48,425 bases of DNA from an uncultured Clostridia bacterium (GTDB lineage: Bacteria; Bacillota; Clostridia; UBA1381; CAJOGA01), in contig CAJOGA010000007.1 of the NCBI GenBank assembly GCA_905233855.1, positions 1 to 48,425 of the forward strand. The letters run 5' to 3'. Below, one piece after another: positions 1 through 4,098 of the stretch. The position numbers and the translations under genes were made by a program. Position 1 is the first letter of the stretch. Each line of letters starts with the position of its first letter. The notes under the pieces are model-generated. The model did not search any database and was not told the origin of the DNA. It saw only the letters and a list, made by a program, of their open reading frames with translations.

Positions 1-95
1 AAAATCAAAAGATGCCTTGGGTTGTTGAAAACGGCGGCAGCGTTACCATAGAAAACTCCGATCTGTTGGAAGGCTACAGCATTATTTATAAATAA
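1..95 (+). CDS. 3' end of an unidentified CDS entering from upstream of the window
   Basis: Frame 3 is open from the window edge to TAA at 93-95 (..NQKMPWVVENGGSVTIENSDLLEGYSIIYK*). A hairpin terminator follows 20 nt later. The fragment is too short to name. Confidence 0.4.
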   Translation, partial: NQKMPWVVENGGSVTIENSDLLEGYSIIYK

Positions 96-110
96 TAAAC
101 AAGATATATT

Positions 111-141
111 TAAAGGTCGCAGCAAAATTGTTGCGACCTTT
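111..141. terminator. Hairpin terminator shared by the convergent partial CDS and the RAYT gene
   Basis: GGTCGCAGCA (115-124) pairs with TGTTGCGACC (129-138) with one G:U pair. It is flanked by AAA on one side and TTT on the other. Confidence 0.6.
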
Positions 142-655
142 AATCATTATAAAAACAATCCGATTCCCATTTTAAAGGGTTTGTGTCTATGTATTCCCAT
201 ATTTTACGATAATCTTTCTCTCCGCGGATAATGTGGTCATGGAATGACCGTTGCCAAATTTTATCAGAGTATGTATTATGTATTTTCTTTGACACATTCA
301 TTTTCAAGAATCCCACTATTTTATCAATAATGGAACGCTGATATTGTAGGGGCGATTCACGAATCGCCCGTTTTTCATCATCATTATTGTTAATTTCTAT
401 GATCAAATGAATGTGATTCGGCATAATCACATATTTAGGAATTGACACATTAAACCTTTCAGGTAATATTTCGATAATTTGTTCCACATATTCTCCATAT
501 TCCGTTAATTGATTTTCGGGCAATTCGTGAATTGCCCCTACAATATTTGAAAATAAACATTTTCTGTTATGTGTGCATATCGTGATAAAATACGCACCCG
601 GTGTGGAATAATTATATTCTTTTAATCTTGTCGGTTTTCGTTTTGGTAAATTCAA
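140..655 (-). CDS. REP-associated tyrosine transposase-like protein (RAYT; Y1 / IS200-IS605-type HUH transposase fold)
   Basis: 171-aa ORF. It has an HUH motif in VIMPNHIHLII, the N-terminal YSTPGAYFITICT, and the C-terminal WQRSFHDHIIR..YIDTNPLKW region that carries the catalytic Tyr. It starts on TTG 4 nt after the amidase stop. Confidence 0.85.
   Translation of the reverse strand: MNLPKRKPTRLKEYNYSTPGAYFITICTHNRKCLFSNIVGAIHELPENQLTEYGEYVEQIIEILPERFNVSIPKYVIMPNHIHLIIEINNNDDEKRAIRESPLQYQRSIIDKIVGFLKMNVSKKIHNTYSDKIWQRSFHDHIIRGEKDYRKIWEYIDTNPLKWESDCFYND
341..370 (+). repeat. REP-like element copy 1: GTAG plus 9-bp-arm palindrome, inside the RAYT CDS
   Basis: Sequence is ATATTGTAGGGGCGATTCACGAATCGCCCG. 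The arms GGGCGATTC (350-358) and GAATCGCCC (361-369) are complementary. GTAG sits at 346-349. Confidence 0.75.
517..546 (-). repeat. REP-like element copy 2, inverted relative to copy 1
   Basis: The reverse complement reads ATATTGTAGGGGCAATTCACGAATTGCCCG. Arms are at 518-526 and 529-537. It differs from copy 1 only at the two partners of one stem base pair. Confidence 0.75.
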
Positions 656-659
656 TTCT

Positions 660-2267
660 TTATTCCGGCATTTTTAAGTTCTCAAGTGTTTTCAATATGC
701 CGTCGGCTATGCCTTGAGCAAATTTCATGCGTCCTTCATCATCGGCAAGCACTTTGAGATCACCGGGATTGGATATAAACGCTGTCTCAACCAGCACCGC
801 CGGCATGGCAGACCTTTTTAACACAGCAAACCCCTCGGTGTCCTGACGCACGCCCCTGTCAACAGTGTCCAGATATTTCATAAGACAGGTCTGTACGTTT
901 TTTGCAAAATCATAAGACGTTACGCCATACCCTTTCACCGACGCATTCTGATTCGGATTATAATATGTCATTGTTCCGCCTACAGAGGTATCGTTCAACG
1001 AATTACAGTGTATGCTGACAAACAACGCCGCATCCAGCTCGTTTGCCACCTTCGGTCGGTCTACCAGCTCAACTCTTACGTCCGTGGTCCTTGTCATAAC
1101 AACTTCCACACCGTGTTCGGTAAGAATCTCTTCCAATTTTAATGCCATATCTAAATTAAAATCTTTTTCTTCATACGTTTTTCCGTCCGCACTGCCCAAT
1201 GCACCCGGCTGATTGCCGCCGTGTCCTGCATCAACCACTACAATTTTACCTTTGTATACATCCGATGTAACAGGCGTAGGCTTAGGCGATGCTGACGGTG
1301 ATGCAGTCGGCTTTGCCGACGAATCTGATTCATTTGCGTATACTTCTATTGTTACAACTTTTCCTGAAGAACTGTGGCTTATCTCGAAATCGCACTCTTC
1401 ATCGGTATCTATAACAAGTCTTGCAGAGTTTTCGTGCTGACCTAAACGTATTGCGTTAAACCCGTCTTTATTTATCGTATATCCTTCTGCCGTTGCGGAT
1501 ATAACAACATCTTCAAAATCAATTATTATCCTGTCAGGCTCAACCATCGTGAAATATGTATATTTTACTTTTTTATCAAAAGTCAGCTTGACTGTGAGGG
1601 TGTCATTCTTCAGAGAGTACGACGTGGTTTTCCAAACGATCGACGGTGTTACCGTAGGTGTCGCCGTGGGCTTACCTGTAGGTGTCGCCGTGGGCTTACC
1701 TGTAGGTGTCGCAGTAGGCTTTGCCGTAGGAGTCGGTGTCGGCTTCACGGTTGGTGTAGGTGTAGGCTTTTCGCCGTTGTATGCTATCATTATAGAACCT
1801 GTGGATTCATCAAAATCAACATCCATACCAAGATTTTCGCCCACAAAACGTATCGGCACCATGGTTTTGCCGGTTATAACGCCGTCAATTTCCGTCGCTA
1901 TTATCATAGGAGCCGCCTCTAACTGCAATTTTTTGTTGTCCACAGTTGCAATCGGATCGTTTATAGTCATTTCCACCTTATGTGTGTTCAGCGAAACACT
2001 TACCCGTTGGGTAGATGCTTCCCAATCCACCTTTGCCCCAAGGCTCTCAAACACCTCTCTTGCCGGCACAACAGCTCTGTCATTAAATATTATCGGCGGC
2101 ATAGGCGGTTTAACCTGTTTACCGTTGATAACAAGATTGAATATGGAGCCTTTGTAGTCAACCATAATTCCGTTATATGATATTGTCAAAGCAGAACACA
2201 CCGTCTGCAGCATAAAAGACGTCAGCAGCATAACTGTTAAAAATACAGCTGTAATTTTCTTTTTCAT
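660..2267 (-). CDS. N-acetylmuramoyl-L-alanine amidase (Amidase_3) with signal peptide, copper-amine-oxidase-like N-terminal domain, Pro/Thr linkers and an AMIN-like domain
   Basis: The C-terminal region has VVDAGHGG..GA, SIHCNS and VLVETAFISN, which are Amidase_3 motifs. The N-terminal region has VPAREVFESLGAKVDWE, a stalk-type motif. The leader is hydrophobic. Confidence 0.9.
   Translation of the reverse strand: MKKKITAVFLTVMLLTSFMLQTVCSALTISYNGIMVDYKGSIFNLVINGKQVKPPMPPIIFNDRAVVPAREVFESLGAKVDWEASTQRVSVSLNTHKVEMTINDPIATVDNKKLQLEAAPMIIATEIDGVITGKTMVPIRFVGENLGMDVDFDESTGSIMIAYNGEKPTPTPTVKPTPTPTAKPTATPTGKPTATPTGKPTATPTVTPSIVWKTTSYSLKNDTLTVKLTFDKKVKYTYFTMVEPDRIIIDFEDVVISATAEGYTINKDGFNAIRLGQHENSARLVIDTDEECDFEISHSSSGKVVTIEVYANESDSSAKPTASPSASPKPTPVTSDVYKGKIVVVDAGHGGNQPGALGSADGKTYEEKDFNLDMALKLEEILTEHGVEVVMTRTTDVRVELVDRPKVANELDAALFVSIHCNSLNDTSVGGTMTYYNPNQNASVKGYGVTSYDFAKNVQTCLMKYLDTVDRGVRQDTEGFAVLKRSAMPAVLVETAFISNPGDLKVLADDEGRMKFAQGIADGILKTLENLKMPE
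1657..1776. repeat. 24-bp tandem repeat array encoding the KPT(A/P)TPT linker of the amidase
   Basis: GGTGTCGCCGTGGGCTTACCTGTA is repeated perfectly at 1657-1680 and 1681-1704. About three progressively degenerate units follow. Confidence 0.8.
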
Positions 2268-2364
2268 ATCAAACTCTTTCCTTAAAACTCAGCTGTCAGC
2301 AAGTGCCGGTTCCTCGAACGGTATTATGCCGCCAAAAGAAAAACCAAGCCTTCGACATCTGCTC

Positions 2365-3390
2365 TTAATCTATATCATTCATTGATATTTGCGTATCGTT
2401 ATTGTTGTTATAAGGTATGTTGAAATGTTTGTATGCAAGCGGTGTCAGAACGCGTCCGCGTGGAGTTCGTGAAATAAAGCCAAGCTGCAAAAGGTACGGC
2501 TCATATACGTCCTCTATCGTGTTTGCCTCCTCGCCGATAGATGCCGCCAACGTTTCCAGACCCACAGGCCCTCCGCCGAAATTTTGGATAATGGCATTTA
2601 TCATACGTCTGTCTATAAGGTCAAGACCTTTTTCGTCAACCTCCATCATATTAAGTGCAAGATCGGCAATTATCTGTGCAAAGTCTCTGACACGTTTCAA
2701 CAGACGGTTGGCTATACGCGGTGTGCCGCGTGAGCGTTTTGCAATTTCCAAAGCACCGTCCGGCTGAATATCAACATTGAGTATTTTAGCCGAACGTGTA
2801 ACTATTTTTGTAAGCTCCTCGTTAGTGTAAAGCTCCAAACGGTTTATCATACCAAAGCGGTCGCGCAGAGGTGCGGTCAACAGACCTGCACGCGTTGTCG
2901 CACCGATAAGGGTGAATTTCGGCAGATCAAGACGTATAGACCTTGCCGACGGACCCTTGCCGATTATAATATCCAATGCATAGTCCTCCATGGCAGGATA
3001 CAGTATCTCCTCAACAGTACGGCTTAAGCGGTGTATCTCGTCTATAAACAAGATGTCGTGCTGCGACAAATTTGTTAAAATAGCCGCCAAATCGCCGGCT
3101 TTTTCTATGGCAGGTCCGCTTGTTATGCGTATATTAACGCCCATCTCGTTTGCAATTATGCTTGCAAGCGTTGTCTTCCCCAGCCCCGGCGGTCCGTACA
3201 GCAGCACATGATCCAGCGACTCATTGCGTTGTTTTGCGGCGTCTATAAAAATTTTCATATTTTCCTTCGCACGCTGCTGACCTATGTATTCGTCCAGACT
3301 ACGCGGTCTGAGCGACGTTTCTATATCTTCGTCGTCGGATATAAATTCGGTTGTTATAATTCTGTCCGACATATTTTCATCAAAATTCAT
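2365..3390 (-). CDS. ruvB: Holliday junction branch migration ATPase RuvB
   Basis: Shows [12 protein letters not shown], Walker [10 protein letters not shown], Walker [10 protein letters not shown], and the C-terminal [25 protein letters not shown]. Confidence 0.95.
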
Positions 3391-3427
3391 TTCTCAACAA
3401 TCCTTTCGGCTGTGTTTGCAGATGAGA

Positions 3428-4033
3428 TCACGACTTCATCAGCAACTTTAACGCCTGCTTGATTATTTCCTCTATCGTCATGCCGTCATCGGCAAACGAA
3501 TCTACAGCTCGCCTTGCCTCGGCAGATGAATAACCCAAAACCATCAATGCTGTTACGGCCTCGTCCTTTGTGCCGGACGGTACCGCTCCCGATTGAGCAT
3601 CGGCAGAAGCGTACAAATCGTCCAGCTCTTTGCCTTTGAACTTGTCCTTCAGCTCAAGCACTATGCGTTGGGCAAGCTTTGGTCCCACGCCCGGTGATTT
3701 TGTGATTGCTTTAACATCGTTTGTAACAACGGCAATGGCAAACTGTGCTGACGAAATGGTGGACAGTATGGACAGTGCAACCTTTGTCCCCACGCCCGAC
3801 ACCGATATCAGTATCTCAAACATACTGAGTTCCTCGTTGGTGGTGAAGCCGTATATATCCAGCACATCTTCACGTGTATGTACATATGTGAACATTTTCA
3901 CGTTTTCGCCGGTTTGATTGAGCTGTTGTATGCTCGACAGCGATGTGTAAATTTTATATCCAACACCGCCGACGTCTATAACCACAAAGTTACTGCCTTT
4001 AAACGCCAGCTTTCCGTTTATATAATAGAACAA
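3428..4033 (-). CDS. ruvA: Holliday junction DNA-binding protein RuvA
   Basis: The N-terminus is MFYYINGKL..VVIDVGGVGYKI and HhH motifs (SVSGVGTKVAL, SPGVGPKLAQRI) are present. It lies immediately upstream of ruvB. Confidence 0.95.
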   Translation of the reverse strand: MFYYINGKLAFKGSNFVVIDVGGVGYKIYTSLSSIQQLNQTGENVKMFTYVHTREDVLDIYGFTTNEELSMFEILISVSGVGTKVALSILSTISSAQFAIAVVTNDVKAITKSPGVGPKLAQRIVLELKDKFKGKELDDLYASADAQSGAVPSGTKDEAVTALMVLGYSSAEARRAVDSFADDGMTIEEIIKQALKLLMKS

Positions 4034-4098
4034 GGCTTTTCCTCCTTTGACAGATACATTATCTTGCAGTAGTTAAACAAATTCCGCCGTTTGATTTA

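Follow-up and report, generated by a model that had tools for sequence, protein, structure and literature searches.

How does a transposase gene come to contain, within its own reading frame, two copies of the DNA hairpin that proteins of its kind bind, and which of the two, the hairpin or the peptide that it encodes, has been kept by evolution? The question is raised by a gene for a RAYT, a domesticated transposase (REP-associated tyrosine transposase, where REP is a repetitive extragenic palindrome), lying near the start of a 48,425-bp stretch of DNA from an uncultured Clostridia bacterium (contig CAJOGA010000007.1), the whole of which is called here the window. An initial annotation, made from the letters alone, had noticed two inverted 30-mers inside this gene, on either side of the segment coding for the catalytic HuH motif, and had described them as REP-like. 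The analysis reported here indicates that the 30-mers are probably in-frame REPs recognised by the RAYT of the same gene, placed head-to-head as in a REPIN (a REP doublet forming a hairpin), and that their DNA is conserved over the peptide.

The structural description given in the initial annotation held in all its points. The two 30-mers, REP 1 and REP 2 (Table 1), form an inverted repeat in which 28/30 positions (93%) are complementary, with 146 nt between them. The two differences, at 30-mer positions 14 (G/A) and 25 (C/T), concern the two bases that face each other in stem pair 5; one arm has G:C there and the other A:T, so that the change is compensatory. GTAG directly precedes each hairpin, at offset 0 in both, the hairpin arms are of 9 bp, the element is translated in both orientations within the open reading frame (ORF), and the ORF coordinates place the HuH codons in the DNA between the copies. 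The A:T state of the first arm is common to the closest relatives (L001-L003, L092 and L204; L203 has one extra mismatch), which points to one inherited event and not to several independent ones. As single-stranded DNA (ssDNA), each arm folds into an 8-bp stem with a 4-nt loop, sterically equivalent to a 9-bp stem with a 2-nt loop, with energies of -8.7 and -7.7 kcal/mol and z-scores of -3.9 and -3.0.

According to the published rule for REPs, GTAG stands 5' of the stem at a distance of 0-2 nt, the stem is paired throughout over at least 7 bp and has at least three G/C among its first four bases, and the loop has 2-5 nt (RNAMotif rule, PMC6006769). Both arms comply, having an offset of 0, a 9-bp stem beginning with GGGC and a loop of 2 (or 4) nt; moreover, being head-to-head and 28/30 complementary, they form an inverted REP pair able to fold into one long hairpin, as is asked of a REPIN. 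The window contains the 24-nt core GTAGGGGCRATTCACGAATYGCCC at two places and no more, 346-369 (+) and 518-541 (-). No further copy with up to three mismatches was found in the 48,425 bp, nor in 100 shuffles, and GTAG hairpins outside the RAYT ORF were found neither in the 48-kb window nor in the 10 kb beyond it (58 kb in all).

Outside the window the same sequence is widespread. The exact 24-mer is present in at least 120 metagenome contigs, with a RAYT gene at the match in only about five of them, among the matches listed; the others listed are single copies, double-foot forms (GTAG...CTAC) or head-to-head pairs 40-100 bp apart. The G+C content of the hosts spans, among the matches listed, 29% to 71%, and in these contigs the 24-mer occurs extragenically in both orientations. 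In addition, the supplementary table of Quentin et al. 2018 gives GTAGGGGCAATTCATGAATTGCCCCTAC as the REP of a Chlorobium subclass 2.4 tnpA_REP gene (PMC6006769), which differs from the window arm by one loop base and by its second foot; the same table also contains GTAGGGGCAGATTCCATATCTGCCC (PMC6006769), which is the arm of one of the relatives analysed here (locus L078). The REP-like character proposed at the outset is thus supported by a near-identical published REP and by the metagenome copies: the window 30-mers are canonical GTAG-type REPs.

The homologues show that the place of these REPs is fixed. The family is a very large one: a word-indexed search returned 5,906 homologues and an exhaustive one 22,279 cluster representatives at 50% identity (E ≤ 0.001); 80 genomic loci were fetched, all from Clostridia-type metagenome-assembled or other genomes, with 36-86% identity. 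In 77 of 83 genes the best intragenic inverted repeat lies at the same two sites, so that both REPs fall in the same two protein loops flanking the HuH strand, with a spacer of 122-167 bp in most homologues. The 154 arms of these 77 genes include 79 distinct hairpins, with stems of 7-10 bp and loops of 2-8 nt, and the GTAG foot is present in all arms except one (153/154).

The peptides encoded at these sites behave differently. Within the 30 closest homologues (65-87% identity) both are near-invariant, whereas in distant subfamilies the pair is replaced wholesale, and yet the two members remain, gene by gene, reverse-complement translations of each other: VGDDAHIVP/GTMWASSPT, VGTGVLDCP/GPSGTPVPT, VGEGLCALP/GGDGTPPLQ, VGQGLAPA/AGASPCPT, VGADALGGP/GPPRASAPT, VGACIARP/GRAMRAPT and VGEDIILP/GRIISSPT. 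A protein-only test on 142 diverse representatives found reverse-complement compatibility over at least 25 nt in 25% of them, against 2% in a cross-protein control; this test is noisy, as loop bases interrupt the runs, and the 25% is a lower bound. Thus, between subfamilies, the peptides are exchanged while the palindrome and its GTAG foot persist, which is the opposite of the outcome that the initial annotation had named as contrary to its proposal, namely constant peptides with non-palindromic codons.

The checks that had been proposed on the hairpins themselves, for covariation and for suppressed synonymous variation, gave positive results as well. Each of the stem positions 3-7 is occupied by all four types of Watson-Crick pair, and Watson-Crick pairing reaches 94%, against 62% when the 3' halves are shuffled between sequences, a value attained in 0/2000 shuffles. 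In a MAFFT alignment of 35 distinct arms, a counting tool found that 7 of the 9 pairs change on both sides; here 92.8% of the cells are paired, against 76.9% after shuffling (0/500) and 28-55% when the partners are displaced by 1-3 columns. Of the stem differences that separate the two arms of one and the same gene, 49 are compensatory and 7 one-sided, part of the 49 being register artefacts in four loci. Such changes within an arm indicate that each hairpin is maintained singly, even at the cost of arm-to-arm complementarity.

The codons point in the same direction. For the GAIHESP class (19 genes, with protein identities of about 50-85%), the most frequent codon makes up a fraction of 0.94 at the REP codons, against 0.54 at 58 other conserved amino-acid columns (Mann-Whitney p = 5e-9). 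The first arm's GTAG falls in the frame GTA-GGG (V-G) in 77/77 genes; for the second arm's CTAC three frames are used, giving PT in 42 genes, PL[QRH] in 33 and PY in 2. With the REP loops masked, 45 of 76 genes have the same stem 7-mer as their nearest protein neighbour (7.9 expected), and this sharing, together with the inherited A:T state of one arm, suggests that the hairpins diverge along with the gene and are not repeatedly re-inserted. The preserved pairing, the frozen synonymous sites and the use of all three frames in the second REP together indicate that selection acts on the DNA. Selection at the nucleic-acid level within the coding sequence, as first proposed, is therefore supported by covariation, frozen synonymous sites and peptide turnover, and sequence comparison supports the conclusion that the DNA hairpin, rather than the peptide, has been kept by evolution.

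Table 1. Coordinates of the RAYT gene and of its two REPs in the window
Feature	Positions	Strand	Evidence
RAYT/TnpA_REP gene, 171 aa, TTG start	140-655	-	ORF, Pfam, NCBIfam, PDB profile match, AlphaFold2/Foldseek
REP 1, on the sense strand; encodes (N)IVGAIHELP, aa 37-46	517-546	-	inverted-repeat search, folding
REP 1, GTAG foot	541-538	-	
REP 1, stem GGGCAATTC	537-529	-	
REP 1, loop AC	528-527	-	
REP 1, stem GAATTGCCC	526-518	-	
REP 2, on the antisense strand; sense strand encodes RAIRESPLQY, aa 96-105	341-370	+	inverted-repeat search, folding
REP 2, GTAG foot	346-349	+	
REP 2, stem GGGCGATTC	350-358	+	
REP 2, loop AC	359-360	+	
REP 2, stem GAATCGCCC	361-369	+	
Spacer between the REPs, 146 bp; encodes helix alphaA, beta2 and beta3 with HuH (407-415)	371-516	-	

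The protein that surrounds these hairpins is a Y1 HUH transposase. The ORF is intact and contains the HuH motif (N80-H81-I82-H83, of which codons 81-83 are those at 407-415), WQ at residues 134-135 and the catalytic tyrosine in Y155-IDTNP; 30 homologues show little or no variation in the HuH and Y---NP motifs. The Pfam Y1_Tnp profile gives 29.4 bits, above its cut-off of 23, and NCBIfam NF047646 (REP_Tyr_transpos) 77.3 bits, slightly below its cut-off of 80; the NCBIfam IS200 model fits far worse (22.1, cut-off 55). A profile built from 30 homologues matches PDB 4ER8, the E. coli TnpA_REP in complex with a REP (PMC3479197; PMC8266576), at 1.2e-7. The AlphaFold2 model has a mean predicted local distance difference test score (pLDDT) of 78, and its top Foldseek match in the PDB is again 4ER8 (E = 1.9e-7, TM 0.58-0.60). 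In this model the REP 1 peptide is predicted to form a loop between beta1 (aa 20-28) and helix alphaA (aa 52-68), and the REP 2 peptide one between the HuH strand beta3 (aa 81-88) and helix alphaC (aa 109-125); both loops have low pLDDT, with residues 43-45 below 50 and the 91-100 block averaging 56. In the profile alignment with 4ER8, both peptides are additions relative to E. coli TnpA_REP.

The TTG start lies 4 nt past the stop of an upstream amidase gene (660-2267; Cu_amine_oxidN1, AMIN and Amidase_3 domains). The RAYT gene has 32% G+C, against 42% for the window, and its two REPs have 56-64%. Close relatives of the gene occupy unrelated neighbourhoods, which indicates that it has moved between contexts. 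The amidase gene contains a tandem repeat of its own, with units of 24/48 nt (1649-1770), coding for a Pro/Thr-rich linker (KPTPTPT...KPTATPTG repeats); the length of this linker varies among otherwise identical contigs, the products having 527 (L207), 535 (L205) and 543 aa (L206). On the other side, between the RAYT stop and the end of a convergent upstream ORF, a perfect palindrome with 16-bp arms (AAAGGTCGCAGCAA..TTGCTGCGACCTTT on the sense strand; 110-143) is found, which is not of the GTAG type and is probably a two-way terminator.

Among the relatives, REPs are found also outside the genes, so that the further copies looked for beyond RAYT coding sequences do exist, both in the flanks of related genes and in the metagenome contigs. 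The gene's own REP allele is present in the 3-kb flanks of 18 of 76 loci, and a generic scan of 401 kb of flanks gave 53 GTAG hairpins, where 446 kb of shuffled sequence gave 1. REP-flanked RAYT genes occur in relatives such as L007, L006 and L201. Of these, L007 represents the classical REPtron, its gene being flanked left and right by REP doublets in addition to the internal pair, and L201 (gene at 2880-3401, protein P0113, 65% identity) has four perfect GTAGGGGCGATTCACGAATCGCCCG copies at 1290-2840, up to 1.6 kb upstream of the gene, its internal REPs being decayed, with a GCAG first foot and an unrecognisable second arm. At L012, five types of GTAG hairpin lie within 500 bp (3560-4070) downstream of one RAYT gene, which suggests several REP families in one genome.

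In two loci a copied or truncated segment ends at REP feet. L073 contains a second, extragenic REP-spacer-REP cassette (2378-2560), 29 nt past the RAYT stop. Over 208 nt it is 86% identical to the intragenic one; it is bounded by the GTAG/CTAC feet and has lost the 24 nt encoding MPNHIHM, with the HuH codons. In L061 a truncated RAYT remnant (2150-2280) lies upstream of the intact gene; its first ~15 codons are fused to the HuH region, and its end coincides precisely with the second REP's CTAC foot, which looks like the breakpoint of a rearrangement. Other irregularities of the gene were also observed. L075 (3001-3606) has several tandem in-frame REPs (GPSRTPAPTRETGTGPSGTPAPTREAGTGPSGTPAPT...) in the loop after HuH, and these appear to be the variable-length insert described for subclass 2.4. 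Two tandem RAYT genes of L064 (2985-3483 and 3773-4271), with the same protein and internal REPs and ~290 bp apart, are a recent duplication, unusual for genes that are normally single-copy. Finally, the RAYT of L069 (1-332) is frameshifted just upstream of the second REP, which is read GRFVNRPYN before a stop; we have here a pseudogene, or else the hairpin was wrongly assembled.

The explanation that we consider likely, namely in-frame REPs recognised by their own RAYT, may be outlined as follows. The GTAG feet of the two REPs face outward inside the gene of the enzyme, and the REPs are translated as two surface loops, predicted to be disordered, in which almost any peptide is tolerated; the conserved unit is the GTAG foot plus a hairpin with a GC-rich base, each hairpin on its own. 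According to the biochemistry of the E. coli, S. maltophilia and Marinomonas proteins, TnpA_REP enzymes bind folded single-stranded REPs strand-specifically, with GTAG and the hairpin as determinants, and cleave and rejoin nearby (PMC3479197; PMC8266576). By analogy with these enzymes, replication or transcription would expose the gene as single strands, each hairpin could then extrude on its own strand, and the encoded protein could bind it and perhaps also nick and rejoin it. Embedding would then produce a compact REPtron, in which enzyme and cognate substrate are inseparable by recombination or horizontal transfer, and the embedded copies might serve as a resident seed or as cis-binding, autoregulatory sites. 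The stronger claim, that the in-gene pair is a working part and not a tolerated insert, its hairpins being bound or nicked by the RAYT, is put forward as a tentative suggestion, which we hold to be rather doubtful.

Several observations weigh against the reading of the 30-mers as REPs maintained for, and recognised by, their own enzyme. In the window organism the internal REPs are the only known substrates, since the 58 kb contain no extragenic REP. In some lineages (L017, L028, L040, L041, L079 and P0113/L201) one or both internal REPs have decayed with the ORF intact, hence they are not essential to the protein. A trade-off between internal and flanking REPs gave no clear correlation over 79 loci (7/14 with internal loss against 19/65). 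Furthermore, the hairpin caller picks the best hairpin of each sequence and so biases the pairing figures upward, which the shuffle and slide controls correct in part, and kinship among the sequences inflates the covariation counts.

A first alternative is that the REPs are neutral passengers: RAYT activity would have put them into tolerant loops, where they merely persist with no role for gene or cell. Quentin et al. 2018 read the inserts in essentially this way, the variable region being in their view peripheral and perhaps of little effect on activity (PMC6006769). The alternative is in keeping with the intact ORFs of the several lineages that lack the hairpins, with the predicted placing of both sites in low-confidence surface loops, with a published model in which the insert is peripheral to the active site (PMC6006769), with the tandem in-frame expansion after HuH in L075 and with the known insertion of REPs into unrelated genes (PMC3733652). 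However, passengers are expected to decay, yet third codon positions are almost invariant across proteins that are 50-85% identical; the stem changes are overwhelmingly compensatory, the position is codon-fixed in 77 genes, and orthologues inherit arm-specific states, contrary to constant re-insertion or overwriting. We therefore regard neutral persistence as unlikely. Conservation of the peptides for their own sake is a further way to account for the sites: GAIHE[LS]P and RAIRESPL would be functional motifs and the palindromes a by-product. The peptides are indeed nearly invariant in the 30 closest homologues, but as a sufficient explanation this is refuted by the turnover of the peptides between subfamilies, by the three frames of arm 2 and by the frozen codons, and its probability is close to nil.

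Two other explanations accept that the nucleic acid matters and place its function elsewhere. The hairpins might act in the mRNA, on translation or stability, or stop antisense transcription: the palindromes fold on either strand, many REPs are transcribed, as argued by Di Nocera et al. (PMC3733652), and 350-369 (+), followed by GTTTTTC, is the only terminator-like site in 1-2400. As a candidate antisense terminator this single match was rejected, being within the shuffle expectation of 1.9 ± 1.3. The GTAG feet are conserved on opposite strands, a symmetry meaningful for DNA and not for one transcript; the same sequences occur outside genes in both orientations, and 1-3000 gave no Rfam match at E ≤ 1, so that a role at the RNA level seems very unlikely. 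The inverted repeats could also let the 146-bp HuH segment flip or drop out, switching the RAYT off. The 28/30 inverted repeat with its 146-bp spacing would suit such a switch, as would the cassette of L073, copied as a unit with its edges at the REP feet and its HuH codons deleted, and the remnant of L061, broken at a CTAC foot. Nevertheless, the differences between the arms are compensatory within an arm and make the two arms less complementary to each other, which marks the single hairpin as the unit under selection, and no inverted or deleted allele was seen among the fetched loci, in a search not designed for such alleles. A recoding inverton was discarded: inversion brings stop codons into the segment for 75 of 77 genes, six of these codons in the window allele, which makes simple inversion improbable as a coding switch. 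Cassette excision or copying is possible, given L073; an invertible or excisable switch as the explanation of the pair is highly improbable.

If the REP pair is indeed a working part of the gene, RAYT gene and REPIN would constitute a single inseparable replicator, which could re-seed a REP population after transfer or loss; a feedback loop may also be envisaged, in which the activity of the enzyme damages or silences the segment coding for HuH. In the lineage of the window, where the surveyed 58 kb contain no other REP, the internal pair would perhaps be the last substrate. The locus bears on how RAYTs copy REPs and REPINs and on why their association lasts (PMC8266576; Bertels and Rainey papers). 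Its main value is a clean experimental handle on RAYT-REP recognition, with two defined natural substrates: the case is compact and genetically tractable, and synonymous recoding could destroy the hairpins without touching the protein. It also carries a warning for annotation, because apparent conserved motifs such as VGAIHESP and RAIRESPLQ, among others, are translated REPs and not protein features.

Compared with known systems, the closest is subclass 2.4 of the TnpA_Y1 protein classification of Quentin, Siguier, Chandler and Fichant (2018, BMC Genomics 19:475; PMC6006769), corresponding to the group 4 RAYTs of Bertels. Its proteins have the motifs NH[IFV]H, WQ and YIxNNP, and its REPs a 5' GT[AG]G foot and three G-C pairs at the base (PMC6006769); in-frame REP insertions in its tnpA_REP genes are described as located "generally between HuH and Y" (PMC6006769). 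The window protein agrees in NHIH and WQ and has a tyrosine of the Y---NP type, although YIDTNP has T in place of the first N of the motif in Table 1 of that study. In both cases REPs with GTAG and a GGG stem lie in frame within the ORF and in the beta3-alphaC loop, which in the window is the site of REP 2. REP 1, in contrast, lies upstream of HuH, and the published Table 1 has no insert between beta1 and alphaA (PMC6006769); one relative, L152, has the published layout, with both REPs after HuH. The initial annotation had opposed an embedded arrangement to the classical flanking one: the embedding stands, but it is not unprecedented, since in-frame REPs of subclass 2.4 genes were already known (PMC6006769), and novelty is limited accordingly. 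Literature searches turned up no account of RAYT genes with internal REPs later than that of Quentin et al. 2018.

The E. coli REPtron (YafM, 4ER8) shares with the window locus the Y1 HUH fold and the GTAG-footed ssDNA hairpin as substrate (PMC3479197; PMC8266576), and some relatives, L007 and L201, have REPs or REPINs flanking the gene as it does. However, the E. coli REPs are long, bulged, outside the gene and present in hundreds of copies, whereas the stems of the window are short, perfect and inside the ORF, with none outside in 58 kb. As in REPINs, two inverted REPs are able to fold as one long hairpin, and in L073 the doublet was duplicated with its spacer; unlike them, the doublet is intragenic and its 146-bp spacer encodes the catalytic HuH segment, and as to a REPIN population, only one extra cassette copy was seen, that of L073, and none in the window. 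The IS200/IS605 elements (IS608, ISDra2) have a related Y1 transposase, which is also among the structural matches of the model, subterminal ssDNA hairpins and a 5' guide tetranucleotide, but their hairpins are outside tnpA, both on the same strand, and delimit a multicopy mobile element. Intragenic REP/RPE sequences of housekeeping genes are likewise in-frame palindromic repeats read as extra loop residues (Di Nocera et al. 2013, PMC3733652); those are scattered over unrelated genes at variable sites, whereas here the REP sits in the gene of its own enzyme, at sites kept in thousands of homologues. What is new with respect to all these systems is the fixed REP pair that brackets HuH, one per side at fixed codons, across a large clade of Clostridia, together with the evidence, drawn from comparison of the homologous genes, that points to purifying selection on the in-gene hairpins.

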